From an uncultured Eubacteriales bacterium (GTDB taxonomy: Bacteria > Bacillota > Clostridia > Lachnospirales > Lachnospiraceae), in assembly GCA_949286525.1 (NCBI GenBank), contig CASECT010000046.1:1255-65254 (forward strand): a stretch of 64,000 nt of DNA, read 5' to 3'. The notes below the pieces were generated by a model that searched no databases, was not told the origin of the DNA, and saw only the letters and a list, made by a program, of their open reading frames with translations. Each line of letters opens with the position of its first letter. The stretch's first letter is position 1. Shown here piece by piece: positions 37,372 to 58,279 of this stretch. Both the position numbers and the translations under genes were made by a program.

Positions 37372-37400
37372 ATATTATCAGAAGCATTTCCCGATGTCAA
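37372..37400 (-). promoter_or_regulatory. Sigma-A promoter of tRNA-Arg
   Basis: TTGACA-17-TAATAT with TG extended -10. Confidence 0.7.
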
Positions 37401-37431: not shown

Positions 37432-37507
37432 GCTGCGAAGCAGTCACTCCACCCACATAAGCAGTCTTAGCTCCGCAAGGAGCGAAACGGGAGCCTCTCA
37501 GAGGCGA
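37432..37507. repeat. Dispersed structured repeat, copy A (overlaps ldh 3' end)
   Basis: Ungapped 64/76 identity to 58169-58244; three hairpins with identical stems. Confidence 0.85.
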
Positions 37508-38456
37508 AATCCAGTTTTCCCGCAATCTCCTTCAGCGCCCGGGCAGATTCCTTCAGTTTCTCCTGCTCCTCCCGGTCCAGATCGATGGGCACCGTAGTCT
37601 CCACCCCGTCGCTTCCCACGATGGCCGGCATACTCAAAACCACATCCTCTATCCCATATTGTCCGTGAAGCATCGTTGAAACCGGAAGAATCGACTTCTC
37701 ATTCCGCACAATCGCCTCGCAGATTCTCTTTACCGACATGGCAATCCCGTAATAGGTAGCCTTCTTCTTGGCGATGATCTCATAGGCGCTGTTTTTTACC
37801 GTCTCAGCGATCTCCTTCATGGCATCCTCATGATTGTAAAATCCCCGCATCTCACAGATGTCATGAATGGGAATACCGGAAACATTGGCACTGCTCCAGG
37901 CGGCAATCTCACTGTCCCCATGTTCTCCTATAATAAATGCGTGAATACTCCTCGGATCCACCTGAAGGTGCTCTCCCAACTGATATTTGAACCGGGCGGT
38001 ATCCAGCACTGTCCCGGATCCGATCACGCGATGCTCCGGCAGGCCGCTGAGTTTCATGGCCGTGTAGGTAAGGATGTCCACCGGATTCGACACGATGAGC
38101 AGAATCCCGGCGAAATTCCGTTTCGCAATCTCCGGAACGATACTGCGGAAAATTCCGACATTTTTCTGCACCAGATCCAGTCTCGTCTCCCCGGGCTTCT
38201 GGTTTGCCCCGGCAGTAACGATGATGACCGCCGCATCGACGATATCGTCATAATCTCCGGCATAAATTTTCATTGGACGCGCAAATGGGATTCCATGGGC
38301 CACATCCAGCGCCTCCCCTTCCGCCTTCTCCCTGTCGGCGTCCAGCAGCACCAGCTCCGAAAACAGCCCGCTTTGCATGAGACAGAAGGCGGAGGCGGAT
38401 CCCACAAATCCGCAGCCGATGATCGCCGCTTTCCGATGATTGATCTCTCTTTCCAT
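37467..38456 (-). CDS. ldh: L-lactate dehydrogenase
   Basis: IIGCGFVG, AGANQKPGETRLDL, NPVD, GTVLDTAR, GEHGD, KKATYYGI. Confidence 0.96.
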   Translation of the reverse strand: MEREINHRKAAIIGCGFVGSASAFCLMQSGLFSELVLLDADREKAEGEALDVAHGIPFARPMKIYAGDYDDIVDAAVIIVTAGANQKPGETRLDLVQKNVGIFRSIVPEIAKRNFAGILLIVSNPVDILTYTAMKLSGLPEHRVIGSGTVLDTARFKYQLGEHLQVDPRSIHAFIIGEHGDSEIAAWSSANVSGIPIHDICEMRGFYNHEDAMKEIAETVKNSAYEIIAKKKATYYGIAMSVKRICEAIVRNEKSILPVSTMLHGQYGIEDVVLSMPAIVGSDGVETTVPIDLDREEQEKLKESARALKEIAGKLDFASERLPFRSLRS

Positions 38457-38570
38457 ATGCTTCTCCTTTCCTGCCTTAACGTCGGTGTAAAGGGAGCACT
38501 CCACTTCGCACGCCGACTCTGCTTGCCGTCTCTGTTGCCTTCGCAGAGGAAGCAAAGACGGTGGAATGTC

Positions 38571-38599
38571 ATTATAAACTATATATTGTCCTTTTTCAA
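38571..38599 (-). promoter_or_regulatory. Sigma-A promoter of ldh, giving a leader of about 105-110 nt
   Basis: TTGAAA-17-TATAAT. Confidence 0.7.
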
Positions 38600-38720
38600 G
38601 CGAGATATACAAAATATAGTTTTCATTTTTGTAATGGCGCATCTCATCGGTCTCCACAATCCCGGGGATGTGGAGACACTGATGGATACCGCAAGGAACA
38701 TGCTGTATACAAAAGACTGA

Positions 38721-39236
38721 TCAGAGAACTGGCGGAACATACCCTGCAATCTCCTCCGCGATCTCTGCAGGTGTGCGCCCGTCCACCGAAACATGCAGAT
38801 TCGCCGCCGCCTCGTAGGCAGGACGTCTCGCCTCCATCATGGCGGCAATGTCTGACACATTTTTCTTTCCCTCAAGCAGAGGACGGTTGTCGTCTTTCTT
38901 TACCCGCTTCAGAATTGTCTCCGGGGAAGCTTCCAGAAGGATCGTGACGCCGTGTCTCGCCATGATGTCCCGGTTTTCCTTTCGCATGGCGATGCCCCCA
39001 CCGCAGGAGATGATCTTCGCCCCGCTCTCCGACAGCTCCAGCAGCATCTCCGTCTCCTTTCTTCGGAAGCTTTCCTCCCCCTCCCGCTCAAAAATCTCCG
39101 GGATTGATCTGCCTTCCCCCTTCACAATCGCCTCGTCGGTATCCACCACAGGCAGATGCAGGCGGCCGCTCAGCTCCTTTGCCACCGTCGACTTGCCGAC
39201 GCCCATGAATCCCACCAGATAAACGCATGTTTCCAT
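38721..39236 (-). CDS. aroK: Shikimate kinase
   Basis: GFMGVGKST, DTD, GEESFR..E, SCGGG, RPLL. Confidence 0.94.
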   Translation of the reverse strand: METCVYLVGFMGVGKSTVAKELSGRLHLPVVDTDEAIVKGEGRSIPEIFEREGEESFRRKETEMLLELSESGAKIISCGGGIAMRKENRDIMARHGVTILLEASPETILKRVKKDDNRPLLEGKKNVSDIAAMMEARRPAYEAAANLHVSVDGRTPAEIAEEIAGYVPPVL

Positions 39237-39238
39237 CT

Positions 39239-40000
39239 CTAACGCCCCTCTCCGAAGAAATCCAAAACCTTTTCCAGTTCCTCCGCCACAGGCTGGCCGG
39301 GAGCGCTGCTGCCCTCCATGGCCGCGAAGGTCACGCAGGAGCCGAAAATCTCTCCCACCGCCCGGCTGACAAGCCCAAGATGCCCCATGGACATGGAGAT
39401 AATCGGCGTCTCCTCATGCTCTTCAGAAAAATCGACGGTTACCCTGAGCAGTTCCAGCACGTCCGATACCGCTTGTGGCATAACCGCCAGTTTTACCAGA
39501 TCCGCGCCGCCCCGCTCCATCTGTTCCAGCAGCGCCATCATCACGCCGTAATCCGGCGTCTCCCCGAAATCGTGATGGGAGGTAACTACCAAAACATCCT
39601 GCTGCTGTATCTGCCGGATGACCTTCGCCGGCTGGGACAGCTCGAAAAATTCCACATCCACCAGATCCACAATCCCGCTCTCAGCCAGGAGTTCATAGGT
39701 GCGGATCAGCTCCTGCTCTGTCAGAAGCGCGTTCCCGCCCTGATGCCGGGTGCGAACAGTGGTTAAGAGCAGTGTTTTTTCACAGAGCGGCTCCAGAGTT
39801 TTCAAAACCTTTCGGATTCGTTCCGCTTCGCGGATTCCCTCAAAAAAATCCAGCCGCCACTCCAGCATTTTGGCGCCCCGCCCGATAAACGCCTTCGCCT
39901 GACGCAGGATCTCCTCTTCCCTCTCCGCCATGACCGGCACACAGACGATCGGCCTGCCCCCATTGATTTTCTGCCCTTTTCTCTCAATGATACATCTCAT
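39239..40000 (-). CDS. aroD: Type I 3-dehydroquinate dehydratase
   Basis: EWRLD, TVRT..QGG, SHHDF, VKLAVMP, SAPGQ. Confidence 0.93.
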   Translation of the reverse strand: MRCIIERKGQKINGGRPIVCVPVMAEREEEILRQAKAFIGRGAKMLEWRLDFFEGIREAERIRKVLKTLEPLCEKTLLLTTVRTRHQGGNALLTEQELIRTYELLAESGIVDLVDVEFFELSQPAKVIRQIQQQDVLVVTSHHDFGETPDYGVMMALLEQMERGGADLVKLAVMPQAVSDVLELLRVTVDFSEEHEETPIISMSMGHLGLVSRAVGEIFGSCVTFAAMEGSSAPGQPVAEELEKVLDFFGEGR

Positions 40001-40112
40001 GTATGTGCTCTCCTATTCTTCCGCGGCTTCCCTGGCACGGATCTTTTTGTTGCCCTGTACGCCGTCCCCGGGACATATTCTCCCGGAAACCTCTCGGAAA
40101 ATTTCTTACCAC

Positions 40113-40174
40113 AGTATAATCCACCCGCAAATCCCCCGCAAGTGTTTGACACATTTTTTATTTTCTTATATGAT
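40113..40174. promoter_or_regulatory. Back-to-back sigma-A promoters for aroDK (minus) and aroEF (plus)
   Basis: TTGCGG-17-TATACT on minus (40113-40141); TTGACA-17-TATGAT on plus (40146-40174). Confidence 0.65.
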
Positions 40175-40217
40175 AGGACGTAGCGAATTTACATTATATA
40201 TAGAAAGGATCTTTGCT

Positions 40218-41096
40218 ATGAATCATCCGATTTCCGGCAGCACCGGCTTCGCCTGTCTGTTGGGCCATCCGGTCAGTCACAGCATTTCCCCGGCCATGCA
40301 CAGCGCAGCCTTCGATCTGCTGGATCTGGACTATGTATATCTGGCCTTCGACGTCACGGAGGATCGTCTGGAAGAGACGGTAAATGGCCTTAAGGCCATG
40401 AACTGTCTGGGCTGGAATCTTACCATGCCCTTGAAGGCCGCCATCATCCCCCATCTGGACGAGCTCTCGGAGGCGTCAGTCCTCTCCCACTCGGTCAACA
40501 CCGTTGTCAGCGACGGCGGGCGGCTGATCGGTCACACCACCGACGGCGTCGGCTACATGGATTCCCTGAAAGACGCGGGATTTTCCATCGACGGCGGGCG
40601 CATGGTGCTGCTGGGAGCAGGCGGCGCGGCAACATCCATCTGTACTCAGGCGGCTCTGGACGGTGTGAAGGAAATTTTCCTGTTCAAGCGGAAAAACGCC
40701 ACCTTCGCCGAAACCGGTAACTTCGCGGAAAAAATTTCAAAGAACACATCCTGCCGTGTGACACTCTGCGATCTTGCCGACCGGGATCTTCTGCAAAAGG
40801 CCATCGCCTCCAGCGACCTTCTGGTCAACGCCACCAATGTGGGGATGGACGTCCAACCCTTCTCGCTGGTTCCGAAGGAATTTCTGCGGCCGGATCTGAT
40901 CGTATCGGACATCATCTACTACCCGGCTATGACGCCGCTTCTTGCGGACGCCGCGGAGGTTGGCTGTCCTTACTTTAACGGGAAATACATGCTGCTCTAC
41001 CAGGGCGCCCAGTCCTTCTTCCTTTGGACCGGGAAAAAGATGCCCACAGAAAAAATAAAAGAAATGTACTTTACACAGGAGGATCAACAGAAATGA
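40218..41096 (+). CDS. aroE: Shikimate (possibly quinate/shikimate, YdiB-like) dehydrogenase
   Basis: HSISPAMH, NLTMPLK, VNT, TDG, LGAGGAA, MLLYQGA. Confidence 0.9.
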   Translation: MNHPISGSTGFACLLGHPVSHSISPAMHSAAFDLLDLDYVYLAFDVTEDRLEETVNGLKAMNCLGWNLTMPLKAAIIPHLDELSEASVLSHSVNTVVSDGGRLIGHTTDGVGYMDSLKDAGFSIDGGRMVLLGAGGAATSICTQAALDGVKEIFLFKRKNATFAETGNFAEKISKNTSCRVTLCDLADRDLLQKAIASSDLLVNATNVGMDVQPFSLVPKEFLRPDLIVSDIIYYPAMTPLLADAAEVGCPYFNGKYMLLYQGAQSFFLWTGKKMPTEKIKEMYFTQEDQQK

Positions 41097-42127
41097 GTTT
41101 CAAATATTTAAAACAGATGCCCACTCCCGAGGAGGTCAAAAGAGAACTTCCCCTCCCCGAAAAATATCAGAAGTTGAAAAAAGAGCGGGACACTGTCATC
41201 AGCGACATTATTACCGGAAAGGACGACCGTTTTCTCGTCATCATCGGACCCTGCTCCGCGGACAACGAGGACGCGGTGTGCGACTATGTGAATCGTCTGA
41301 CTGCCGTTCAGGAAAAGGTGGCCGACCGGGTTTACATTGTCCCGAGAATCTACACCACCAAGCCCCGCACCACCGGTTCCGGCTACAAGGGCATCGCCTC
41401 CCAGCCGGATCCCACAAAAGCCCCGGATATGGTGGAGGGTCTGATCGCCATGCGTAAGATGCACATCCGGGCCATCGAGGAGAGCGGTTTTACCTGCGCT
41501 GACGAGATGCTCTACCCGGAGAACTGGGGTTATGTGGAAGATCTTCTCTCCTATGTGGCCATCGGCGCCCGCTCTGTGGAAGATCAGCACCACCGGCTGA
41601 CTGTCAGCGGTTTCGACGTGGCTTCCGGCATGAAAAATCCCACCAGCGGCGATTTCTCCGTGATGCTCAACTCCGTGTACGCGGCTCAGCATCCCCACCA
41701 CTTTACCTTTGCCGGCTACGAGGTGCTGACCACCGGAAATCCCCTGGCCCACACGATCCTGCGGGGCGCTGTCAGCAAGCACGGCAACAGTGTACAGAAC
41801 TACCACTACGAAGACCTGATGAGACTGTCACGGATGTACCATGAGATGGATCTGGTCAATCCCGCCTGCGTCGTGGACGCCAACCACTCCAACTCCAACA
41901 AACAGTTCAAACAGCAGATCCGCATTGTCCGGGAAGTCATGGCCAGCCGCCAGTTCTCCCCGGAGATCAAAAAACTGGTCAAAGGCGTCATGATCGAGAG
42001 CTACATCGAGGAGGGCTGCCAGCCCATCTCCGACCACCAGACCTACGGCAAGTCCATCACGGATCCCTGCCTCGGCTGGGCGGACAGCGAACGTCTGATC
42101 CTGACCATTGCGGAGATGAATAAATAA
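41093..42127 (+). CDS. aroF: DAHP synthase, class I
   Basis: IIGPCS, KPRT, IGARS, GMKNPTSG, DANHSNS, MIES, SITDPCLGW. Confidence 0.92.
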   Translation: MSFKYLKQMPTPEEVKRELPLPEKYQKLKKERDTVISDIITGKDDRFLVIIGPCSADNEDAVCDYVNRLTAVQEKVADRVYIVPRIYTTKPRTTGSGYKGIASQPDPTKAPDMVEGLIAMRKMHIRAIEESGFTCADEMLYPENWGYVEDLLSYVAIGARSVEDQHHRLTVSGFDVASGMKNPTSGDFSVMLNSVYAAQHPHHFTFAGYEVLTTGNPLAHTILRGAVSKHGNSVQNYHYEDLMRLSRMYHEMDLVNPACVVDANHSNSNKQFKQQIRIVREVMASRQFSPEIKKLVKGVMIESYIEEGCQPISDHQTYGKSITDPCLGWADSERLILTIAEMNK

Positions 42128-42130
42128 GCC

Positions 42131-42209
42131 GGCAAAAACCCCCTCTTTCGGACACGCTTTCGCTTAGTGCCGGCGATTTCTACAGTCCGGAAAGAGGGGG
42201 TTTTTTGCC
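42131..42209 (+). terminator. Long-stem terminator after aroF
   Basis: GGCAAAAACCCCCTCTTTCGGAC...GTCCGGAAAGAGGGGGTTTTTTGCC. Confidence 0.65.
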
Positions 42210-42545
42210 AGTGAATATGTAGCGCTGCAGTCTGCATCGACAATGTTTTTTCTATCTAAATACACCTCTTCTAGTTCTCTCTTTTTTATAGATAAAGGAA
42301 AAATAATTGGATCAATAGTCCCGCCGAAAATCCTTCCAAACCGCCTGGAAAAAATTCCCCATAAATAGTTTTTGTCCAAATAATGAACCGTTTTGGGGCA
42401 TACAAACGAGACCGCAACCTGAAGTTGACAAAATGCATTCTCAAAGCGATAGATGAAAACACTTTGATTTGATACGATATCATCAAAAATCAAATAAAAG
42501 AAGGATTACCATGACTTTACATGAAAAAACTTTCGCGAAGAAAAC

Positions 42546-42580
42546 AAGCGGGCAAGAAATTTTTACATCTTACCCGCTTT
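42546..42580 (-). terminator. Terminator after gltD
   Basis: AAGCGGGCAAGA...TCTTACCCGCTT. Confidence 0.6.
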
Positions 42581-42598
42581 TCCCCGCTTTCATTCCTC

Positions 42599-44083
42599 TT
42601 ACAGGTTTGAGTATCCCATCAGGAACTCGTCCACATCCCGGGCGCAGTCCCGGCCCTGGCGCATGGCCTTGACCACCAGAGACTGTCCGGTGTGCATATC
42701 GCCGGCCACAAAGATGCCTGGCTTTGAGGTCATGAAACTTCCCTCTTTTGTCGCCACATTGGTGCGTCCGTCCACCTCGACGCCGAAAGCGTCCGTGACA
42801 TACTTCTCGCTTCCCAGGAAGCCCGCAGCGATCAGCACCAGCTGGCAGGGCACTTCCTTCTCGCTTCCCTCCACGGGAACCATCATCCGTCTTCCGGTCT
42901 TCTCATCCACCTGAGACTCCAGGGATGTCAGTACCACCTTGGTCAGATTTCCCTTCTTGTCCTTGATGAACTCCCTGACCGTCGTAGTGTAGATTCTCGG
43001 ATCATGACCGAACACCGCGATGGCCTCCTCCTGGCCGTAATCGGTCTTGCAGACCAGGGGCCACTGAGGCCAGGGATTGTTCTCCGCCCTCTCATCGGGA
43101 GCCTTCGGCATCATCTCCAGCTGCGTGATGGACTTGCAACCGTGGCGGATGCAGGTGCCCACACAGTCGTTTCCGGTATCGCCGCCGCCGATGACGATCA
43201 CGTCCTTGCCCTTGGCGGAGATGAAGGTTCCCTCCTTCAGACCGTTGTCCAGAAGGCTCTTCGTGGTGGAAGTAAGAAAGTCCACCGCGAAGTAAATCCC
43301 CGCCGCGTCTCTTCCCGGTGCCTGGATATCCCTGGGATGGGAAGCGCCGCAGGCCAGAACCACCGCGTCAAATCCCTCCAGCAGCTTTTTGCTCTTGGCA
43401 TCCTTTCCGATATCGGCGTTTGTCACGAAGGTAACGCCTTCCGCCTCCATAACCGCAAGTTTCCGGTCGATGATCTGCTTCTCCAGCTTCATGTTGGGGA
43501 TGCCGTACCGCAGCAGGCCTCCGATTCGGTCGTGCCGCTCAAACACCGTTACCAGATGGCCACGCATATTCAGCTGATCCGCCGCAGCCAGTCCCGCCGG
43601 GCCGGATCCGATGACTGCCACCTTTTTGCCGGTTCTGGTCTTCGGCGGTTTGGGGCCCGCCAGACCGTTGGCGTATGCGTATTCGATGATAGCCATCTCG
43701 TTGGCCTTGGTTGAAACCGGTTCCCCGTTCAGGCCGCAGGTGCAGGCCTTCTCGCAGAGGGCCGGGCACACCCGGCAGGTAAACTCCGGAAAATTGCTGG
43801 TCTTATGCAGCCGCAGATACGCCTGCTTCCAGTTGCCGTGATACACCAGATCATTCCACTCGGGCACCAGATTGTTCAGGGGACACCCGGAGGTCATTCC
43901 CTTGATGTTCATGCCGAACTGGCAGAAGGGAACGCCGCAGTCCATGCAGCGGGCGCCCTGCCTCTGCTGTTCCTCCCTGGTCAGAGGGGTGTGAAACTCG
44001 TCAAAATTCTTTATTCTCTCCAGCGGCGCAACGGCAGCCGCGTCTTTTCTCTCGTACTCCAAAAATCCTGTTGGTTTTCCCAT
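42599..44083 (-). CDS. gltD: Glutamate synthase small subunit
   Basis: MGKPTGF, RCMDCGVPFC, GSGPAG, GGGDTGNDC. Confidence 0.96.
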   Translation of the reverse strand: MGKPTGFLEYERKDAAAVAPLERIKNFDEFHTPLTREEQQRQGARCMDCGVPFCQFGMNIKGMTSGCPLNNLVPEWNDLVYHGNWKQAYLRLHKTSNFPEFTCRVCPALCEKACTCGLNGEPVSTKANEMAIIEYAYANGLAGPKPPKTRTGKKVAVIGSGPAGLAAADQLNMRGHLVTVFERHDRIGGLLRYGIPNMKLEKQIIDRKLAVMEAEGVTFVTNADIGKDAKSKKLLEGFDAVVLACGASHPRDIQAPGRDAAGIYFAVDFLTSTTKSLLDNGLKEGTFISAKGKDVIVIGGGDTGNDCVGTCIRHGCKSITQLEMMPKAPDERAENNPWPQWPLVCKTDYGQEEAIAVFGHDPRIYTTTVREFIKDKKGNLTKVVLTSLESQVDEKTGRRMMVPVEGSEKEVPCQLVLIAAGFLGSEKYVTDAFGVEVDGRTNVATKEGSFMTSKPGIFVAGDMHTGQSLVVKAMRQGRDCARDVDEFLMGYSNL

Positions 44084-44101
44084 CGGTATCTCCTTTCTGT
44101 C

Positions 44102-47100
44102 CTACCTGGTCAGAGCATTAAAGGCCTCAATCTGTGCCTGCTCGCTGCTCAGTCCTTTTTCTTCCATCTGGACAATCGTCATCATCATCTTCTTATAGTC
44201 GTGCGGTACAATCTTCTTGAATTTCGGAAGGTACTCGCTGAAGTGATCAAAAATCTTCTTGCCCTTTTTGGAGTTTGTATAGGCGACGTGCTCCGCGATG
44301 ATTTCCTTCAGCTCCAGCACATCGTATTTGTCGGTCACAGGTTCCAGAGACACCATGGTCTTGTTGACTTTACGGTACAATGTGGCGTCCTCATCCAGCA
44401 CATAGGCGATACCGCCGCTCATGCCGGCCGCGAAATTCTTTCCTGTTCCGCCGAGAACTACTACCCGTCCGCCGGTCATATATTCACATCCGTGATCGCC
44501 GCAGCCTTCCACCACCGCGGTCGCTCCGGAATTGCGGACGCAGAATCGCTCCCCGGCGACACCGTTGATGAAAGCCTTGCCGCTGGTTGCCCCGTAGAGG
44601 GCCACGTTTCCGATGATGATGTTCTCATCCTCAGGATAGGCTGCTCCCGTCGGCGGATAGACAATCAGCTTTCCACCGGAAAGGCCCTTCCCGAAGTAAT
44701 CATTGCTGTCGCCCACCAGCTCCAGCGTAAGCCCCTGGGGAATGAACGCGCCGAAACTCTGTCCGCCGGAACCGTTGCATTTGACGGTAAAGGTATCCTC
44801 TGCCAAATGCTCTCCGTATTTTCTCGTGATCTGCGCGCCGAACAGCGTTCCCACCGCCCGGTCCGTATTGGTCACATCGATCTCAATACTCTTTCTCGCT
44901 CCCTTTTCCAGTGCATCGGCAAAATGTTTTGAGAGAATCTTCTCATCTACCGTATTTTGGAGCTGGAAATCATAAACATCCTTTTTATCATAGGAAATCT
45001 TGACTTTTCCTCCCGCATAGGGATTGTTCAGGATGGCGCCAAGATCCACCTTACCGCTTCTTCCCTCTCTCACAGATTCCTTTACCTGAAGCAGATCGGT
45101 TCTTCCCACCAGCTCATCTACCGTACGAATGCCCAGACGCGCCATATATTCCCGCAGTTCCTGGGCGATAAAGCGCATGAAGTTGACCACATACTCCGGT
45201 TTTCCGGTAAAGCGCTTCCGAAGGTCCGGGTTCTGTGTAGCGACGCCCACCGGGCAGGTGTCCAGGTTGCAGACACGCATCATCACACAGCCCATGGTTA
45301 CCAGGGGCGCTGTCGCGAATCCGAACTCCTCGGCCCCGAGCATAGCAGCGATGGCCACATCACGCCCCGTCATCAGTTTTCCGTCCGTCTCGATAATAAC
45401 TTTTCCGCGCAGACCGTTCATGGTCAGCGTCTGATGGGCCTCCGCCAACCCCAACTCCCAGGGCAGGCCCGCGTTGTGAATGGAACTCCTGGGCGCCGCG
45501 CCTGTGCCGCCGTCATAACCGGAAATCAGGATAACCTGGGCGCCGGCTTTCGCCACGCCGGAAGCCACCGTTCCGACGCCCGCCTCGGAAACCAGTTTTA
45601 CCGAAATTCTCGCATCCCGGTTAGCGTTCTTCAGATCATAGATCAACTCCGCCAGATCCTCGATGGAGTAAATATCATGGTGCGGCGGCGGCGAAATCAG
45701 GGACACGCCCGGCGTGGACAGCCTGGTTTTGGCGATCCATGGGTACACTTTCTTTCCGGGCAGATGTCCACCCTCTCCGGGTTTCGCCCCCTGGGCCATC
45801 TTAATCTGAATCTCCTGGGCGCTGACCAGATAGCGGCTGGTCACGCCAAAACGTCCGGAAGCTACCTGCTTGATGGCGGAGCAGCGATTGAGGCCGTCCT
45901 TGCCGACAGTAAGACGCTCTTCCTCCTCGCCGCCCTCCCCACTGTTGGACTTGCCGTGAAGCATATTCATGGCAATGGCCATGGTCTCGTGGGCTTCCTT
46001 GGAAATGGAGCCGTAGCTCATGGCGCCGGTCTTAAACCGGCGGACAATGGAGTCCACGCTCTCCACCTGATCAATATCGATTCCTTTCTTCGGATATTTG
46101 AAGTCCATCAGTCCCCGTAAGTTTTTGATGGACTCTTCATCGTTGATCAGGGCACTGTACTCTTTGAAGGTATTGTAATCTCCGGTCCTGGTGGACAGCT
46201 GCAGCAGATGGATGGTCTGAGGATTGTAAAGGTGCTCCTCCTGGCCGCTGCGCATCTTGTGAGCGCCCTTGCTGTCCAGAGTGGTATCCATCCCCAACTC
46301 CAGGGGATCAAAGGCTTTCGTGTGGAGCATCTCCACATCCTCCTGGATATCCTTCAGGTCAATGCCGCCCACACGGCTGACCGTGCCGGCAAAATATTTG
46401 TCAATCACACTGGAGCTGATGCCCAGCGCCTCGAAGATCTTTGCGCCCTGGTAGGACTGGATGGTGGAAATTCCCATCTTGGACGCGATCTTGATGATTC
46501 CGCTCAGGATCGCGTTATTGTAATCTTCCACCGCCGCGTAGTAATCCTTGTCCAGCATGTGCAGATCGATCAGCTCCTGAATGCTCTCCTGAGCCAAGTA
46601 GGGATTGATGGCGGAAGCGCCGTATCCCAGCAGCGTCGCGAAATGGTGTACATCCCTGGGCTCCCCGCTCTCCAGAATCACAGAGAGAGAGGTACGCTTC
46701 TTGGTCTGCACCAGATACTGCTGCAGAGCGGAAACCGCCAGCAGCGACGGGATAGCCACATGATTTTCATCCACGCCCCGGTCGGAGAGGATGATGATGT
46801 TGGCGCCCTCCCGGAATACCCGGTCCGCCTCCACATACAGATGATCGATGGCCTTCTCCAGAGAGGTGTTCTTGTAATAAATGATCGGAATGACCTCCAC
46901 CTTGAAGCCGTCCACCTTCATATTTTTAATCTTCATCAGATCCGTGTTGGTCAGGATCGGATGATTAATGCGCAGAGCTTTGCAGTTGTCCTCATTCTCC
47001 TCCAGCACATTTCCGGCCTTGCCGAGATAGATGGTCGTGGAGGTAACCACTTCCTCACGGATGGAATCGATGGGTGGATTCGTTACCTGGGCAAACAGCT

Positions 47101-48640: not shown

Positions 48641-48737
48641 CTTTTTTTCCTTTCGTCTGTCTCGTCGCACTCTCTTGCGAATGGCATAGCTCAACTATAC
48701 AACTGCTTCATCTGTTTGTAAAGTACTTTTTCTTTCC

Positions 48738-48752
48738 AATTTTCTGATAATT
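48738..48752. promoter_or_regulatory. CodY box upstream of gltB
   Basis: AATTTTCTGATAATT, one mismatch to AATTTTCWGAAAATT. Confidence 0.6.
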
Positions 48753-48805
48753 TGATAATTTATTATTTTATAGTAAATTTTGTATTATATTTATTCTGTT
48801 TTTCT

Positions 48806-49459: not shown

Positions 49460-49487
49460 AAACTCGTCCCTCTCAGGTCCTTTCTAC

Positions 49488-49515
49488 AGTCTATGAAAAA
49501 AATGGAAATTTATTC
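49488..49515 (-). promoter_or_regulatory. Putative sigma-E-type promoter of spoIIM
   Basis: GAATAAA-13-CATAGACT. Confidence 0.45.
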
Positions 49516-50064: not shown

Positions 50065-50132
50065 CCTGTTTTTCTCCTCCTCTTTGTGTAATAAAAAGGA
50101 CAGCCGGATTTCCCGTCTGTCCCGTTTTTTCT

Positions 50133-51680
50133 TTACTTCGCATAATCCGTAACACGCGACTCGCGTATCACATTGACCTTGATCTGGCCCGGATATTCCA
50201 GTTCAGATTCAATCTGTTTGGAAATATCTCTCGCCAGCAACACCATTTCGGCATCGTTGACTTGATCAGGAACTACCATTACTCGAATCTCTCTGCCTGC
50301 CTGAACGGCAAAAGATTTTTCTACACCTTTGAAACTGTTTGTGATATCTTCTAACTGTTTTAATCTGTTGGAATACGCTTCCAAAGTCTCACGCCTTGCA
50401 CCCGGTCTCGCGGCGCTGATCGTATCAGCGGCCTGGACAATACACGCAATCAGAGATTCCGGTTCCACATCCCCATGATGAGCCTCCACGGCGTTGACAA
50501 CAACCGCCGACTCCTTGTACTTCCTGCACAGACTGGCTCCCAGCTGGATATGAGATCCCTCCATATCGTGATCTACCGCCTTGCCAATATCATGCAGCAA
50601 ACCGGCCCTTTTTGCCATCCGCACATCCACGCCCACTTCCGCAGCCAGAAGCCCCGCAAGCTGCGCGACCTCTATAGAATGCTTCAGGGCATTCTGTCCG
50701 TAACTGGTGCGATAACGCATCCGTCCCAACAGCTTTACAAGCTCCGGATGAATACCGTGGACACCCACTTCCAGAGTAGCCGCCTCTCCTTCTTCCCGAA
50801 TCAGCGTCTCCACTTCTTTCTGGGCCTTTTCCACCATCTCCTCGATTCTGGCCGGGTGGATTCTTCCATCGACGATCAGCTTCTCCAACGCAATACGGGC
50901 AATCTCCCGGCGCACCGGATCAAAGGCGGAAAGAATGACCGCCTCCGGCGTATCATCAATAATCAGTTCCACACCTGTCAGCGTTTCCAACGTGCGGATA
51001 TTCCGACCTTCCCGGCCGATAATACGCCCTTTCATCTCGTCATTCGGAAGCTGCACGACAGAGATTGTAGTCTCCGCCACATGATCTGCGGCGCATTTCT
51101 GAATCGCGGTCACAACAATGTCCCGCGCTTTCTTATTCGCCTCTTCCTTTGCCTGAGCAACGGATTCCTTGACCAGTTTCGCAGCATCCAGTTTCACATC
51201 TTCTTCAACAGTTTTCAAAAGAAAATCTTTTGCTTGTTCGGAGGTCAAACCAGAAATTCTCTCCAGTTCCTGCACCCTCTGCTGGTTCAGCTTCGCAACT
51301 TCAGCCCTCTGCTTATTGATCTCCTCTTCCCTTGCAGCAAATCCAGCTTCTTTTTTCTCCACCGCTTCCAACTTCTTGTCCAGATTCTCTTCCTTCTGCA
51401 TAATACGGTGTTCGTTTCGCTGAATTTCTGCTCTGCGCTCACGGATTTCCTTTTCGAGATCATTCTTTGTCCGCAAGGATTCCTCCTTAGCTTCCAACAA
51501 AGCCTCCCTCTTCTTGGTCTCCGCGTTTTTTACCGCTTCATCAATAATGGCCCGCGCACGGTCTTCCGCATTACCCACCTTCTGGTCAGACACCTTCTTA
51601 TGGTACGCGTTCGCTATAGCCATTGTTACCGGAACAGCAACGATCAACGTCACAATCACTGCGATAACGATCTGTAGCAC
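50133..51680 (-). CDS. rny: Ribonuclease Y
   Basis: N-terminal TM, coiled coil, [23 protein letters not shown]. Confidence 0.97.
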
Positions 51681-51759
51681 AGGAGCACCTCCTTTATTAA
51701 GTTTTTATTGTAAATATAACATAAAAAGATGAAATTCTGTCATAAACTACAACATATAA

Positions 51760-51788
51760 ATTTTATCCTTTTCGCCCAAATCTGTCAA
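51760..51788 (-). promoter_or_regulatory. Sigma-A promoter of rny
   Basis: TTGACA-17-TAAAAT. Confidence 0.7.
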
Positions 51789-51797
51789 GGGTAAACC

Positions 51798-52403
51798 TCA
51801 GACCTCTTCCTGCCAGAGCGTCCTGCGGATATCCTCCGACCGATACCCTCTCTGCATCAGAAAACGGTACATCTTCTCCTGCTGTTTCCTATCCCGTTCT
51901 CCCTCGCGATAGCCCTTTTTCCGCAAAAGTTCCCGAATCTGATCCGTCTCGGAAACATCATAATCTTCCTCCAGACATCGGTCGATCAGATCCCGGTCAA
52001 TCCCCTTCCCCTGAAGATCTCTGCTGATGCGCAGCCGGCTTCGGCTGTGCTGATACGCCCGTATAAAGTTTCTGACATACCGTTCATCATCAATATAGTG
52101 GAAGGAAGCCACATAGGCAATGGCATCCTCCACCACCTGCTGAGGATAATGAGCCCTCTGCAGTTTCTCCCGAAGCTGAGCCGTGGTCTGATCCATCTTT
52201 TCTAAAATATGCATCGCCCTCTTTCTGGCTCTCGGGGTCAGTACTTCTGTGAGAATCCGCTGGTACTGTTCCGGTAAAAGCTCTGCTCCCTCCGCTATGC
52301 CAAATTGCTTCAGTTCCTTTCCATAGAGCACAAGGTCTGCCTCTCCCTGGAGGCAGACCCTGTAACGTCCTTTCGTTTCCGATATCAACGCTGTAATCAT
52401 CAT
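51798..52403 (-). CDS. recX: RecA regulator RecX
   Basis: RAMHIL..T..LREKL, YIDDERY, L..KGI, FLMQRGY; directly after recA. Confidence 0.9.
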   Translation of the reverse strand: MMITALISETKGRYRVCLQGEADLVLYGKELKQFGIAEGAELLPEQYQRILTEVLTPRARKRAMHILEKMDQTTAQLREKLQRAHYPQQVVEDAIAYVASFHYIDDERYVRNFIRAYQHSRSRLRISRDLQGKGIDRDLIDRCLEEDYDVSETDQIRELLRKKGYREGERDRKQQEKMYRFLMQRGYRSEDIRRTLWQEEV

Positions 52404-52407
52404 CGCT

Positions 52408-53481
52408 CTATTTCTCTTTTCCCTTGGACACCTTGGACACTTTCTCCTCAGCGGATGCCGCCGCAGGCTCAGCCGCCTCTGCCGGGCCATCCATCTCATA
52501 GTGCGCCCGTACCTTCGTCTCAATCTCCTGACAGATCTCCGGATGCTCTCTCAGAAACTGTTTGGCATTCTCACGTCCCTGACCGATCTTCTCGCCCTCG
52601 TAAGCATACCAGGCGCCCGACTTATTGACAATGCCGAGATTTGCCGCGTTATCAAGAATATCTCCCTCTTTGGAAATACCCTTGCCGAACATGATGTCAA
52701 ACTCTGCCTCCTTAAAAGGCGGCGCGATCTTATTTTTTACCACCTTGATCCTGGTACGGTTGCCGACCACTTCCCCCCCCTGCTTGATAGCCTCGATCCG
52801 ACGCACATCCATGCGGACAGAAGCGTAAAATTTCAACGCGCGGCCACCGGTAGTAGTCTCAGGATTGCCAAACATCACACCGATCTTCTCACGGAGCTGG
52901 TTGATGAAGATGACGATACAGTTGGACTTGCTGATGGCCGCCGTCAGTTTTCGCAAAGCCTGAGACATCAGCCGGGCCTGCAGGCCCACATGAGAATCGC
53001 CCATATCTCCGTCAATCTCCGCCTTGGGCACCAGCGCCGCCACAGAGTCCACAATCACGATATCAATCGCCCCGGAGCGCACCATAGTCTCCGTAATCTC
53101 CATCGCCTGCTCTCCATTATCTGGCTGAGAAATGTACAGATTGTCGATGTCAACGCCGATATTCCTCGCGTACACCGGATCCAGCGCATGCTCCGCGTCG
53201 ATAAAACCGGCAATCCCGCCGGCCTTCTGCACCTCGGCAACCGCGTGGAGCGCCACTGTGGTCTTACCGCTGGACTCCGGTCCGTAGATTTCAATAATTC
53301 TGCCCTTTGGAAGACCGCCCTGTCCCAAAGCGATATCCAGGCTGATGGAACCGGTGGGAACTGTCTCCACCTTCATCTGGCCGGAAGTATCTCCCAGCTT
53401 CATAACCGATCCCTTGCCATACTGTCTCTCTATCTGCGAAATCGCAGCATCCAATGCTTTCAGTTTTTCTTCCTGTGCCAT
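52408..53481 (-). CDS. recA: Recombinase A
   Basis: [27 protein letters not shown]. Confidence 0.98.
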
Positions 53482-53496
53482 ATTTTCCTCCATTTT

Positions 53497-53510
53497 CGAA
53501 CGCACGTTCG
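53497..53510. promoter_or_regulatory. LexA (Cheo) box upstream of recA
   Basis: CGAAC-GCAC-GTTCG, perfect GAAC-N4-GTTC; TTGACT-17-TATTAT promoter just upstream. Confidence 0.85.
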
Positions 53511-53728
53511 CTCCATATGTATTATAATAAATTACTGTGCTGTAAAAGTCAATAAAAAAATGGGATATTTACGGAATCTCAAAGATAAAAAGAACGCGGC
53601 TCCCCGCAGCAATATTATAGATTCTTTTGACGCGCCCCGTCAAGGACTTTTTGCCCGGCAGCGGCGGCGAGTGCGCATATGGGCGGAGTGGGTAGCCAAG
53701 AATCGTAATCCGTTAGAGAGCATAGCGC

Positions 53729-53762
53729 AAAAAAGGCGTCCGGAATTTCTTCCGGCACGCCT
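53729..53762 (-). terminator. Terminator after glnA
   Basis: AGGCGTGCCGGAA-GAAA-TTCCGGACGCCTTTTTT on minus strand. Confidence 0.7.
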
Positions 53763-53818
53763 CTCCACAAATTTTCTGTAATCTTTTCCCTCGTAATCTT
53801 TTTTTCTTTTCCGGCTTT

Positions 53819-55918
53819 CTAACGCACACTGTAGAGGATTTCTCCGTAGGTAGGATAAGGCCAGATCCTTCCGGGCACGAGGGTCTCGAGCTCATCCACA
53901 ACCTCACGCAGCTTACCCATATCCTCGAAGATCACATCGCGATTGTACTTCGCCAGATCGTAGACATCCGCATAAACGCTCTCTTTTTCCACATCTTCCT
54001 CCAGCTTTTTCAGGCTCGAAGCCAGAGCGGAGGTCAGATCGGACGCCTTTACCAGCATCGCCTCCTCTGTCTCGCTGCTGATGGAGGTAAGCGCCGCCTT
54101 CTTGGCACTGATGGTTTCAGCCAGGGAACGCTGATAGCTGCAGGCAGCCCCCATGATATCATTCTTTACCATGGAAATCATGGTCAGCGCCTCGATATTC
54201 AGAGTCTTGTAGTAATTCTCCAGCAGGATATCGTAGCGAGCCATCATCTCGGACTCGGTGTAGACTCCGTTTGCAGTAAACAGATCGACAGATTTCTTCG
54301 ACACGAATACCGGCAGCGCGTCCACAGTGGAGCTCAGGTTGGACAGACCGCGGCGCTTTGCCTCCTCGATCCACTCCTCGCCGTAGCCGTTTCCGTTGAA
54401 GATGATCCGCTTATGGGCCTTGATCTCCCGGCGCAGAAGTTCTGTCAGCGCCTGATCAAAGTCCTCCACGCCCTCCAGTTCATCCGCAAACTGGCGCAGA
54501 CTTTCCGCCACAATCGTATTGAGTACCACATTTGGTCCGGAAATGGAAGCTGCGGAACCCAGGGAACGGAACTCGAATTTGTTTCCGGTAAAGGCGAAGG
54601 GCGATGTCCGGTTCCGGTCGGTGGTATCCTTGGGAATATGGGGCAGGACAATCGCTCCGATGGACATCAGAGTCTTCTCCTTATCGTGGTAATCCAGTCC
54701 CTTCTCGATGGACTCCAGAACCTCCGTCATCTCGTCTCCCAGGAAAATGGAGATGATCGCAGGCGGCGCCTCATTGGCTCCCAGACGATGATCGTTTCCG
54801 GCGCTGGCCACAGATACGCGCAGCAGCTCCTGATAATCGTCCACCGCCTTGATAACCGCCGTCATAAACAGCAGGAACTGAGCGTTCTGGGAGGGTGTCG
54901 CCCCCGGCTCCAGCAGGTTGACGCCGGTGTCGGTGGAGATGGACCAGTTGTTGTGTTTACCGGATCCGTTGATACCTTCAAAGGGCTTCTCGTGAAGCAG
55001 GCAGGTCATTCCGTGCCTCTTTGCCACGGTCTTCATCATCTCCATGGTAAGCTGGTTGTGATCGGTCGCAATATTCGTAGTGGTAAATACCGGTGCCAAC
55101 TCGTGCTGGGCAGGCGCCACCTCATTGTGCTTGGTCTTGGCGTAGACGCCCAGTTTCCAGAGCTCCTCGTCCAGATCCTTCATATAGGCAGAAACCCTCG
55201 GATTGATGGTTCCGAAATAGTGATCCTCCAGCTCCTGCCCCTTTGGCGGTTTCGCGCCAAAGAGAGTTCTGCCTGTGTAGATCAGATCCGGGCGTTTCTC
55301 ATACATCTTCTCGTCGATCAGGAAATATTCCTGCTCCGGTCCCACAGTAGTGTTGACCCGTTTCACATCCTCGTTTCCGAACAAGCGCAGCACGCGCATG
55401 GCCTGTTTATCCAGAGCCTGCATGGAACGCAGCAGCGGCGTTTTCTTATCCAGCGCTTCCCCGCTGTAGGAACAGAAAGCTGTGGGGATACACAGGGTAT
55501 CATCCTTGATAAAAGCGTAAGCTGTGGGATCCCATGCCGTGTAGCCTCTGGCCTCAAAGGTGGCGCGCAGGCCGCCGGAGGGGAAACTGGAAGCGTCCGG
55601 CTCGCCCTTTACCAGTTCTTTCCCGGAAAATTCCATAATAACCTTTCCGCCGGGCTCAGGGGAAATGAAACTGTCATGTTTTTCCGCTGTAACGCCCGTC
55701 ATCGGCTGGAACCAGTGGGTGTAATGGGTTGCCCCCTTCTCCACCGCCCAGTCCTTCATGGCGGCCGCCACCACATTTGCCAGATCCAGCTGCAAATGCA
55801 GCCCCTCGTCCATGGTCTTGTGCAGCGCCTTGTAGATATCCTTCGGCAGGCGTTCCTTCATTACTTCATCATTGAAGACCATACTGCCAAACAGTTCCGG
55901 TACCTTCATTGTCATCAT
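53819..55918 (-). CDS. glnA: Glutamine synthetase type III
   Basis: 699 aa; [58 protein letters not shown]. Confidence 0.95.
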
Positions 55919-55969
55919 CTTTTCCTCCTTTTTTCCCGCCCCGGAAATTTCCGGGGACTTTTTCCTATA

Positions 55970-57553
55970 TCAACAACCGCTCTGGCCGTAGTTCTTCAGA
56001 ACTCTGGCCGACGGGTCGTCAACATCGCAGTTCTCCCAGTTCCTGTTGGGCATCCAGAAATCTTTGATCATTTCTGCCTGGCCGGGATAATATTTTTCAA
56101 AGAGCTCCCGATACAGGAGAGACTCCTTGGTAAAGGGCTTCGCGCAGGTATATTTCGCCGCCTTCTCCTCAAACTCCTGATCCGTGTAAAGCCCCTCGGC
56201 GTATTCCTTGATGTAATCCACCATGGAATGGCCAACCGCGTCGGAGAACGCCGCCTTCTCCCGAAAGAGAATGTCGTGGGGAAGGTAATCTCCCTCCTCA
56301 AAGGCATGACGCAGCAGATATTTTCCCTTGTTGTATCGGTTCATCTTCAGTTCCGGATTCACGCTCATTACATAGGAAACAAAATCCAGATCCCCGAAGG
56401 GCACCCGGGCCTCCATGGAGTTTACCGAGATACAGCGGTCCGCCCGCAGCACATCGTACATATGCAGCTCACGCAGCCGCTTTTCCGCTTCCTGCTGAAA
56501 CTCTTCCGCGTTCGGGGCGAAGTCCGTATATTTGTATCCGAAGAGCTCGTCGGAGATCTCTCCCGTCAGAAGCACCCGGATATCTGTCTGCTCGTGGATG
56601 GCCTTGCAGACCAGATACATGCCCACGCTGGCGCGGATGGTGGTAATATCGTAGGTTCCCAGGATGCTGATCACGCGCTCCAGACTGTCCAGAACAATAT
56701 CCTTGTTGATGATGACTTCCTGATGATCGCTGTGCAGGTACTCCGCCACCTCCCGGGCGTACTTCAGATCGATGGCGTCCTCGCTCATGCCGATGGCGAA
56801 GGTACGGATCGGTTTTTTCAGAATTTTGCTGGAAATTGCGCACACCAGGGAACTGTCCAGCCCGCCGCTTAAGAGAAATCCCAGAGGCGCGTCCGCGTCC
56901 AGACGCTTCTCCACTCCGGCCACCAGCTTGTCATGAATTTTTCTGCATACCGTCTCCAGATCATCCTTCACATACTCCTGACGTGCCGCCAGATCCCGGT
57001 AGCAGACAAACTTTCCATCCGCATAATAATGTCCCGGCGGGAAGGGCATGATCTTGTCGCACAGACCGACCAGGTTTTTGGCCTCGCTGGCAAAGACGAT
57101 GGATCCCTTGCTGTCATATCCGTAGTGCAGCGGGCGGATTCCGATGGGATCTCGGGCCGCCACCAGATCGCCTCTTGCGCTGTCGTAGATGATACAGGCA
57201 AATTCCGCGTCCAGACGCCCGAACAGATCCAGTCCGTACTTCTCATACATGGGAAGAATGATTTCGCAGTCACTGTCACTGACAAAAGTATATCCCTCTC
57301 GCTCCAGATCCTCCTTCTCCCTGCGGAATCCATACAGTTCGCCGTTACAGATCACATAGTTTCCGTTTCTCTCAAAGGGCTGCATGCCGCTCTCCGTCAG
57401 TCCCATGATGGCCAGTCTCTGAAATCCCAGAACACAGTCCCCAACCTCGATTACTCTGCACATATCCGGTCCTCTGGAAGTGGTCGCCGCAAAATACTCC
57501 TCAAACTCCTCCATGGAAATATGTCGTTTTGAAAGACCCATTATTGAACACAT
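55970..57553 (-). CDS. asnB: Asparagine synthetase B (glutamine-hydrolysing)
   Basis: N-terminal Ntn Cys (MCSIMG), NGELY, LSGGLDSS, DELFGY, EARVPF. Confidence 0.95.
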   Translation of the reverse strand: MCSIMGLSKRHISMEEFEEYFAATTSRGPDMCRVIEVGDCVLGFQRLAIMGLTESGMQPFERNGNYVICNGELYGFRREKEDLEREGYTFVSDSDCEIILPMYEKYGLDLFGRLDAEFACIIYDSARGDLVAARDPIGIRPLHYGYDSKGSIVFASEAKNLVGLCDKIMPFPPGHYYADGKFVCYRDLAARQEYVKDDLETVCRKIHDKLVAGVEKRLDADAPLGFLLSGGLDSSLVCAISSKILKKPIRTFAIGMSEDAIDLKYAREVAEYLHSDHQEVIINKDIVLDSLERVISILGTYDITTIRASVGMYLVCKAIHEQTDIRVLLTGEISDELFGYKYTDFAPNAEEFQQEAEKRLRELHMYDVLRADRCISVNSMEARVPFGDLDFVSYVMSVNPELKMNRYNKGKYLLRHAFEEGDYLPHDILFREKAAFSDAVGHSMVDYIKEYAEGLYTDQEFEEKAAKYTCAKPFTKESLLYRELFEKYYPGQAEMIKDFWMPNRNWENCDVDDPSARVLKNYGQSGC

Positions 57554-57577
57554 GACACAATCACCTTTCTTTGTAAC

Positions 57578-57626
57578 AAAAAAGGCAAAGGCACCACAGA
57601 TATATCTTCTCTGTGGCGCCTTTGCC
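57578..57626 (-). promoter_or_regulatory. Leader attenuator: ANTAR-type hairpin overlapping an intrinsic terminator
   Basis: GGC-AAAGGC-GCC hexaloop hairpin is the 5' arm of GGCAAAGGCGCCACAGA...TCTGTGGTGCCTTTGCC-TTTTTT. Confidence 0.7.
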
Positions 57627-57641
57627 ATTAAAATTGAAATT

Positions 57642-57670
57642 ATCATATGACTTTTTCCGGAAAATGTCAA
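57642..57670 (-). promoter_or_regulatory. Sigma-A promoter of asnB-glnA
   Basis: TTGACA-17-TATGAT; spacer contains palindrome TTTTCCGGAAAA. Confidence 0.7.
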
Positions 57671-57674
57671 TCCC

Positions 57675-58025
57675 CTATTTTCCGTCTTTTTTATTTTCTT
57701 TCTCTTTCTCCTTCTTGCTCTCCACTGCGTCCTCGGGTTTCTCTACCGCCTGAATCGCAGCTTTCTGCATCGGGATACGACAATTTCTGTTGCTGCCGAA
57801 CTCAACAATTACGGTATCCTCCTGAATGTCGATAATGACACCGTAAAATCCGCTGGTAGTCATGATGGTATCTCCCACTGCCAGAGATGACATCATGGCA
57901 TTCTTCTTCTTCGTCTCCTTCTGCTGGGGACGGATCATGAAAAAGTACATAAAAGCAAACAATACAACGATCCACACGATCATCATGATCGAACCGCCCG
58001 ACTGTGCCGCAACTGCTCCTAACAT
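57675..58025 (-). CDS. yajC: Preprotein translocase subunit YajC
   Basis: TM then YFFMIRPQ, VGDTIMTTSGFYG; downstream of tgt. Confidence 0.92.
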   Translation of the reverse strand: MLGAVAAQSGGSIMMIVWIVVLFAFMYFFMIRPQQKETKKKNAMMSSLAVGDTIMTTSGFYGVIIDIQEDTVIVEFGSNRNCRIPMQKAAIQAVEKPEDAVESKKEKEKENKKDGK

Positions 58026-58150
58026 GTTATATTCCTCCTAAAATATACGTTTGCCGCTGGACAGCTTTGTCCGACAGCATCTTTTCTTATTTTACATAAA
58101 ATACCTGTCCCATGCAAGCCTTTTTAACAATCTTTTTCCGCATTATTACT

Positions 58151-58276
58151 ATTCACAGCCGATTCAGGGCTGCGGAGCAGTTACCCCACCCACATGAGCA
58201 GCCTTAGCTCCGTAAGGAGCGGGACTGAAGCCTCGAAGAGGCGACGGGTGCGAATGCGAGTGGGATGACTGTGAAT
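58151..58276. repeat. Dispersed structured repeat, copy B (full-length, REP/MITE-like)
   Basis: Terminal IR ATTCACAG/CTGTGAAT; imperfect inner IR CAGTTACCCCACCCACAT/ATGCGAGTGGGATGACTG; core homologous to 37432-37507. Confidence 0.8.
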
Positions 58277-58279
58277 GGC

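Follow-up and report, generated by a model that had tools for sequence, protein, structure and literature searches.

Two look-alike loci, at the 3′ ends of ldh (copy A) and tgt (copy B), lie in a 64,000-nucleotide stretch, hereafter the window, of the draft genome of an uncultured Lachnospiraceae bacterium (GCA_949286525.1, contig CASECT010000046.1; genome G000, 1.9 Mb in 173 contigs, 86% complete). Both are probably decayed copies of a MITE (miniature inverted-repeat transposable element) of ~196 bp, moved in trans by an ISBst12-like DDE transposase of the IS66 family and placed upstream of sigma-A promoters. The ends of the element, its target duplications, the empty sites in relatives, a clade of insertion sequences (ISs) with matching ends, the covarying hairpins and a preferred spacing from −35 boxes are all observed in the sequences compared. 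An earlier note on the window had read the pair as a repetitive extragenic palindromic (REP)-like element moved by an HUH enzyme, or else as a repeated noncoding RNA (ncRNA). Its mobile structured element stands, its HUH mobilizer does not, and its ncRNA is disfavoured.

Extent and build of the element

An ungapped alignment of copy A (37432-37507) with 58169-58244 has 64 of 76 nucleotides identical, and none of the 12 differences falls inside the 28 stem positions (hypergeometric P=0.002, for stems picked post hoc). The repeat described by the earlier note is real, and so are the common orientation of the copies at the 3′ ends of two minus-strand genes and the 18-bp inverted repeat enclosing copy B (58178-58195 / 58254-58271). 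The element is larger than that note had it: copy B spans 58145-58283, with degenerate 16-bp terminal inverted repeats (TIRs) and flanking duplications identical at 6/8 positions (TCCGCATT/TCCACGTT). The stems, there called invariant, are broken here and there when 19 copies are compared, one inner hairpin having 4 unpaired cells and the other 3. Both copies overlap their host genes, the ldh stop codon lying inside copy A and the tgt stop inside the right TIR of copy B. Copy B folds better than its shuffles (z of −4.5/−5.1 as RNA and −1.9/−2.2 as DNA), and the GNA and GNRA loops lie on the + strand, antisense to the ldh and tgt mRNAs.

When complete, the element runs from a left TIR through module X, whose 22-bp arms enclose a conserved core, and then a small stem to module Y, a long stem with two inner hairpins, and closes with a right TIR. 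The TIRs measure 14-16 bp in the 97- and 196-bp relatives and in copy B, and are gone from copy A. Module X also stands alone as a 97-bp element, copies of which end ...GACTGTGAATAGTAAC, where the 196-bp copies read ...GACTG(T/C)GAAGCAGTCAC. Because the right TIR of the 97-bp form occupies the position of stem 1 in the composite, this stem, the first of the three in the earlier note, is likely a remodelled inner TIR. The junction left by the deletion of module X in copy B recurs in the sister genome G001 (contig C135) and in the 39-bp minimal copies L370 and L377.

Seven related loci were found in G000 at E<=0.01, which agrees with the earlier view of a dispersed, non-autonomous element moved in trans; the copy on contig C1 has the complete ends GTTACTATTCACAGCC...GGCTGTGAATAGTAA. 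A 23-nt left-end pattern, with 1 mismatch allowed, occurs in 4/401 genomes of the family (3 times in G000, 4 in G001, 17 in G337 and once in G220), and G337 holds 55 matches to a full copy. Metagenomes yielded 25 loci, 16 of them with both modules. No match was found in the plasmids searched; in viral contigs a 21-mer gave 0 matches, and the matches to a 14-mer gave no duplication-flanked end pair among 80 loci.

A shorter end motif, GTWACNRTTCAC, is present at least 30 times in 32/401 genomes of the family and up to 379 times in one, the maximum for a reversed-pattern control being 27. The interiors of these other elements are unrelated to the present one and yet likewise hairpin-rich. Prokaryotic MITEs, according to the part of PMC11602168 available, are intergenic, 50-800 bp long, with TIRs of at least 10-15 bp, a duplication of 2-10 bp and no transposase, and the element fits them in size, TIRs, duplication, lack of transposase and siting. 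It departs from them in its interior, which is not a deleted parent IS but a set of modular covarying hairpins, different between genera and reaching a fold-back of 744 bp. The main text of that source, as far as it was available, mentions neither IS66 nor Lachnospiraceae.

Several side observations concern such elements. Two 744-bp elements of G279 (L187:482-1225 and L188:519-1262) have the same ends, fold back over nearly their entire length and far exceed usual MITE hairpins. Many contigs of G323 start or stop 70-90 bp within an element of this kind; assemblies are interrupted at these repeats, so that drafts understate copy numbers. In G019, a module-X-like core with 22-bp arms lies behind a GTAACAGTTCAG-type end (L056:2030-2185), making the hairpin module common to MITEs of different end types, and another MITE (L044:1500-1800) is apparently interrupted by an element whose open reading frame (ORF) begins MRLGWTKTKY, which we take to resemble an IS1634-type transposase.

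Target duplications, empty sites and the probable partner IS66 clade

Among 29 MITE end pairs, two of which are spurious (inner or crossed), 15 agree at 7/8 or more flanking bases and 5 perfectly, against at most 1 in shuffled pairings. The length of 8 is specific, lengths 5-7 and 9-12 giving 0-2 of the 29 pairs. A perfect 8-bp duplication flanks the copy on contig C28 of G000. A TA duplication of the IS630 type was rejected, there being no signal at length 2.

Both sites are empty in the sister species G001 (93% protein identity), and in G002 the one at tgt is empty too. The element copies now supply the stops of both genes: LDH finishes with 13 residues in place of the 2 found in G001, and Tgt exceeds its G001 counterpart by 7 residues. 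Conversely, six loci of G001 were checked in G000: two are empty, two occur in both genomes but are partly lost from G000, one is a remnant missing from G000, and one is without flank match. Parts of the locus also occur in sequencing runs labelled metagenome, gut or chicken gut. Run X5 has a contig in which 58138-58283 is skipped, with two other letters, and run X3 one in which 58185-58292 is skipped, each being a single low-depth contig; a joint at tgt in run X6, with 30 letters only on one side, was left unused. No joint at the ldh site appeared in four runs, where cover is patchy. Copies shed arms by deletion, as seen in copy A and in the X3 contig, and the transposase has likely gone from this lineage, leaving its copies to erode in this way.

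A fragment of the ISBst12 type was used to search 45 mostly TIR-rich genomes and found matches in 8. At three loci, ORFs of 514-580 amino acids (aa) adjoin GTTAC(T/C)ATTCACAG ends; all three match PF03050 above cut-off (E 1e-13 to 3e-18), score 183, 175 and 139 bits with NF033517 (cut-off 180) and have the invariant residues D265/D266, D318 and E446. A genome scan with their alignment returned 49 loci, three being the query loci, with a TIR at both ends in 32, at one end in 10 and at neither in 7, the last mostly fragments or contig ends. Perfect 8-bp duplications flank 15 of the 25 ISs that have both flanks (at most 2 in shuffled pairings), with single cases of 7 bp and of 9 bp besides. In a tree that includes each distinct element once and omits fragments and repeat copies, the members of the GTTACTATTCAC group come together on one supported branch (97/99), separate from GTAAC-ended and from three-gene IS66 elements; 22/29 group rows had been picked by search with this clade. 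Lachnospiraceae are the commonest named family among the carriers, and two genomes (G068 and G090) carry both ISs and MITEs. Compared with 23 of these ISs, the MITEs match over the terminal 14-32 nt only, so that their interior did not arise from the parent IS by internal deletion. Altogether, the element is very probably a MITE of IS66.

Ends starting with GTAA are a hallmark of the IS66 family. Those of the present clade begin GTTA, and the nearest relatives encountered have GTAACTATTCAG or GTTACTGTTCAG; GTTA would be a variant end, ISDge4 also departing from the hallmark (GTGA) at one end. ISDge4 exemplifies the ISBst12 group, which resembles the partner in having an IS66-type DDE transposase, apparently without tnpA/tnpB, and an 8-bp direct repeat, and its ends GTAACTGCTCAGCA / GTGACTACTCAGCA are patterned like GTTACTATTCACAG of this clade (PMC12898284, in the part available). 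The clade differs from that group in its GTTAC ends and in the upstream ORF of 100-135 aa found in many members. In the same part of that source, ISDge4 was observed inserting within a gene, whereas the present clade prefers sites a set distance upstream of promoters; the two copies in the window are derivatives that code for no protein.

The 22 ISs scored for ORF content comprise 8 with the transposase ORF alone (one split) and 14 with an extra upstream ORF, mostly of 100-135 aa, in which no Pfam family scored above cut-off in the four scanned. This ORF (L231, L232, L234, L237 and others) has a YxYES..WDKEKKQSR-like motif and a coiled coil and presumably resembles IS1634 N-termini; promoter-spaced IS sites occur both with and without it.

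Other partners were considered and rejected. ISLre2/p-MULT3 misfits in end letter and spacing, and its PF06782 was not found in 5 genomes, in a search without positive control; three-gene IS66 elements have GTAAGC ends; and in G007 and G019, paired TIRs with 1.6-2.4 kb between them enclose host genes and no transposases.

Spacing between element ends and promoters

Distances were measured from the element end to the start of the −35 box, duplication included, in 115 de-duplicated elements, MITEs and ISs, with duplications of at least 7/8 (16 full ISs before one duplicate was dropped). The −35 boxes start mostly 29-30 or 38-40 bp from the end, with one match between 31 and 37 bp and few beyond 41. 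The intervals 27-31 and 37-41, fixed after a first look at the flanks, cover 10/72 positions and take in 26/35 TTGAC[AT] matches and 31/40 matches to the full promoter pattern. In 63 elements then fetched as a held-out set, the counts were 14/19 (p=6e-9) and 17/22 (p=3e-11), respectively. An element with a match inside the intervals was found in 39/115 cases, against 0-5 when the intervals were shifted in six ways. The 90 flanks of a GTAACTRTTCAG-ended control gave 1/9 for TTGAC[AT] and 4/15 for the full pattern. In G418, three-gene IS66 elements gave 0/10 right flanks, whereas the GTTAC ISs of the same genome had 5/6 matches inside the intervals over 11 flanks. Either end may face the promoter (left 8/28, right 6/28). 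In G000 the distances are 27 (copy B, with a weak −35 that the scanner missed), 28, 28 and 31, as well as 31 from the broken edge of copy A. The siting at gene 3′ ends reported earlier holds as a position and is better read as siting just upstream of the next promoter. The GTAACTRTTCAG ends belong to a parallel MITE superfamily (G162, G351, G059, G318 and G284) with up to 160 matches per genome and without the 29-30/38-40 spacing.

Fixed siting upstream of promoters has precedents in TnGBS, ISLre2 and ISKra4, Mutator-like elements that insert 15-17 bp upstream of sigma-A −35 boxes in Firmicutes and make 8-9 bp direct repeats (PMC3942029, in the part available). The likeness lies in the fixed distance upstream of the −35 box and in the direct repeats. 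The transposase of those elements is unrelated, with a single peak at 15-17 bp, mostly oriented insertion and a terminal C (same source and part), whereas the present clade has peaks at 29-30 and 38-40 bp, uses either end and has a terminal G.

The spacing could also reflect survival, if an IS66 MITE inserted with little preference and persisted only where it lay upstream of the footprint of RNA polymerase. All the sites are indeed those of natural survivors, and the loop strand of the folded interior is antisense to genes in 20/26 co-directional loci (20:6, p=0.009, with gene strands called roughly by a codon model), a hint that selection acts once the element has inserted. Selection, however, predicts a threshold and not two peaks 2-3 bp wide; GTAAC-ended relatives of the same family survive at 8-28 bp, and the peaks appear also among IS copies of G418 that are young and identical. 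Survival as the source of the spacing is thus improbable, and it is very likely that the spacing is promoter-guided.

Several facts weigh against the reading of an IS66 MITE moved by this clade and guided by promoters. As many as 76/115 intact elements are without a strict promoter match at the peaks, a count that would also suit survival, and survival after insertion may shape the distribution. The promoters are consensus matches, not mapped starts. GTAAC-type ends gave 4/15 inside the intervals for the full pattern; Clostridiales-1 ends (42 flanks) gave two matches per pattern, 1/2 inside for TTGAC[AT] and 2/2 for the full pattern, the latter at 39 and 41. The clade shows no end preference toward the promoter, unlike ISLre2. 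Within the window, copy B has a weak −35 box at 27 bp, off the peak, and copy A is without TIR. Searches found no cognate transposase in G000, G001, G002, G337 and G220, the first four being 77-95% complete, and a related transposase fragment occurs in only 8 of the 45 mostly TIR-rich genomes. With no cognate transposase in G000, G001, G002 and G337, mobilization of this exact subfamily is deduced from its ends alone.

On the reading of a promoter-guided IS66 MITE, the transposase would bind the 14-16 bp ends, and the IS66 DDE enzyme would make a staggered 8-bp cut and transpose the MITE in trans. Promoter-bound RNA polymerase, or the shape of the adjacent DNA, would position the enzyme, and the two distances, 9-10 bp apart, would correspond to two registers of the helix that share a face of the DNA. 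Direct protein tethering at the promoter may be given even chances. Insertion would spare the promoter; where the intergenic gap is short, the gene upstream would receive the element at or in its 3′ end, which is the situation of ldh and tgt. The interior is not IS-derived and likely comes from a Clostridiales-1-like repeat; its pairing is likely kept by arm-to-arm copying together with selection on propagating copies, and after loss of the enzyme copies would erode by deletion.

The folded interior, its relatives and what the element means

In 23 full-length copies, 24/77 pairs change on both sides, where shuffles give 10.1 and slid controls 2-8, on a structure hand-set from the same sequences and with relatedness uncorrected; pairs were counted on hand-set structures because RNAalifold (alignment A2) missed the outer stem, some rows being truncated and a gap shifted. 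Changes are fewer in paired columns than in unpaired ones, both in G337 (17/788 vs 19/336) and in this genus (37/412 vs 29/189). The same private change often occurs in both TIRs or both arms of one copy (L005, L013, L023 and L271); this points to copying from arm to arm in addition to selection. The earlier claim of a structure under selection is thus borne out by the conservation and covariation of paired positions and qualified by stems that break in single copies and by private changes found in both arms.

Part of this interior recalls the Clostridiales-1 motif (RF01699), which PMC2864571, in the part available, classes as likely RNA and not cis-regulatory. The likeness consists of a long hairpin tipped by GC-TT-GC (module X) and of a stem containing the ATGAGCA...TGCGAAT internal loop (module Y), and both repeats are multi-copy in the same genomes. 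The latter motif, defined after both had been viewed, occurs in 17/21 Clostridiales-1 copies, 13/19 module Y rows and 0.03% of shuffles. Module X of G001:C79 aligns to RF01699 at the hairpin tip with 25.1 bits, the best score of the MITE and below the gathering score of 48. Matches to RF01699 number 52 in G337, 17 in G323, 2 in G001 and 0 in both G000 and G019, with none in the window or on the full G337 copy L264. IS66 ends are present in 0/21 inspected Clostridiales-1 copies, and nhmmer comparison of sequence profiles in both directions found no similarity between MITE and Clostridiales-1. The interior therefore likely shares building blocks with this repeat without being a member of it. Clostridiales-1 copies of G337 (L324, L328, L332, L338, L342, L344 and L346) have a TACTAT/TACTCT-like flank first and a partial 5′ re-duplication after, and they look like mobile DNA with a mechanism of its own.

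That the element is instead a repeated structured ncRNA, or a 3′-untranslated-region regulator kept for host function, is very improbable. The strong fold and the covariation, the weak module X match to Clostridiales-1 and the 20:6 antisense bias are what such an RNA might show. Its sites, however, are species- or strain-specific, and arms are lost by deletion. There is no strand signature of RNA, G·T pair types numbering 21 on the + strand and 16 on the − strand beside 22 other mismatches. No terminator-like site was found at either locus, and a search of the window with Rfam, at gathering and E-value thresholds, returned two tRNAs only and nothing at E<=10 over copy B.

REP and REPIN sequences, moved by RAYT (Y1) enzymes, are short intergenic palindromes with DNA-stable loops and many copies, and HUH enzymes make no target duplication; loops of the CTTG, GAA and GYAA types are DNA-stable. 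The element is likewise a short, multi-copy intergenic palindrome with such loops, all on one strand; G337 Clostridiales-1 copies, which are devoid of TIRs and frequently bear partial tandem re-duplications, have the module Y motif in common with it; and a TIR-like end lies within ~1.5 kb in 3/6 Y1 loci. Movement by a Y1/RAYT enzyme via single-stranded DNA is scarcely credible all the same, given 8-bp duplications, IS66-identical, IS-type TIRs, no flanking Y1 gene and no tetranucleotide tag found; in five genomes searched, no Y1 gene was found in G001 or G337, the sole Y1 match of G000 is a broken, 40-residue IS200-type fragment (contig C77, L350) with no element nearby, and the three TIR-near Y1 loci (of five in G323 and G068) sit among 379 and 141 TIR matches, where proximity is expected by chance. 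The HUH reading is thus already largely refuted for the whole element, a REP-like origin being possible for the interior alone.

A bolder version of the promoter-guided IS66 reading is doubtful: the clade would be tethered by promoter-bound RNA polymerase, with two registers at its upstream edge, and the MITEs would have captured Clostridiales-1 arms because one strand folds in transposition. If true, the movement of IS66 elements would involve an intermediate that is single-stranded or cruciform, and Clostridiales-1 would not be an RNA gene but mobile DNA.

The features of both loci are collected in Table 1. As the earlier note had stated, no transposase was recognized in the window, transposase families being absent from 60 ORFs (50 scanned with Pfam at E<=1e-6 and 10 with NCBIfam; the other listed ORFs, mostly antisense, lay outside the scan). 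The Pfam scan showed Spo0A to be encoded in the window, which, like the prevalence of Lachnospiraceae among IS carriers, suits a host of that family. Few window genes with a Pfam match lie on the + strand, namely a LysR gene (2992-3876), DUF5688 (19549-20556) and shikimate dehydrogenase, the last standing on the + strand among minus-strand aro genes (39930-41096 on +, 39239-40000 on −).

Table 1. Coordinates, in the window, of the two element copies and of the genes and motifs around them.
Feature	Position	Strand	Remarks
Copy B	58145..58283	+	139-bp MITE, deletion derivative of the ~196-bp element without module X (first long hairpin), from alignment to full-length copies
Copy B left target duplication TCCGCATT	58137..58144	+	6/8 identical to 58284-58291; 8 bp is the family length
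Copy B left TIR ATTACTATTCACAGCC	58145..58160	+	15/16 to IS end GTTACTATTCACAGCC
Subterminal GATTCAG	58161..58167	+	Junction of module X deletion, presumably between short near-repeats
Stem 1 CTGC-GGA-GCAG	58170..58180	+	Placed where the 97-bp form has its right TIR; likely remodelled inner TIR
Module Y	58178..58271	+	Outer stem 58178-58195 with 58254-58271, internal-loop motif, two inner hairpins
Module Y internal-loop motif ATGAGCA...TGCGAAT	58194-58200, 58249-58255	+	Motif also in 17/21 Clostridiales-1 copies
Inner hairpin GCTCC-GTAA-GGAGC	58207..58220	+	T-A/G-C compensatory change at one pair between subfamilies
Inner hairpin GCCTC-GAA-GAGGC	58230..58242	+	Loop CGAAG in 17/23 full-length copies
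Copy B degenerate right TIR GACTGTGAATGGCTTAC	58267..58283	+	Contains tgt stop 58280-58282 (minus strand)
Copy B right target duplication TCCACGTT	58284..58291	+	
yajC promoter-like motif TTGCAT-17-TAAAAT	58089..58117	-	Begins 27 bp from copy B left end; kept in G001; weak −35, missed by promoter scanner
Copy A	37432..37507	+	76-bp module Y remnant; both TIRs and right arm of outer stem lost
ldh stop codon from copy A	37467..37469	-	13 C-terminal residues vs 2 in the G001 orthologue
Promoter-like motif TTGACA-17-TAATAT	37372..37400	-	Upstream of tRNA gene, 31 bp from copy A edge; distance inexact, TIR lost
tRNA gene downstream of TTGACA-17-TAATAT motif	37279..37352	-	Rfam RF00005, 67.5 bits
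ldh, L-lactate dehydrogenase (host gene)	37467..38657	-	TIGR01771 above cut-off
tgt, tRNA-guanine transglycosylase (host gene)	58280..59434	-	TIGR00430 above cut-off
yajC (host gene, downstream of copy B promoter-side end)	57675..58025	-	TIGR00739 above cut-off

The literature searched, with subscription reviews and ISfinder outside it, held no paper on this MITE family or on promoter targeting by IS66, though the IS clade may be catalogued. Fixed-distance promoter targeting was there ascribed only to Mutator-like transposases, whereas the present case concerns an IS66 clade with two registers, at ~30 and 39 bp. The class of element is ordinary; its promoter geometry offers a direct assay for the poorly characterised mechanism of IS66. 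Such elements are a source of false "ncRNA" predictions. With ends beside promoters and the ability to rewrite the C-termini of proteins, as at ldh and tgt, they are also a source of unannotated regulatory variation, and the clade is a possible gene-sparing integration tool for gut Lachnospiraceae.

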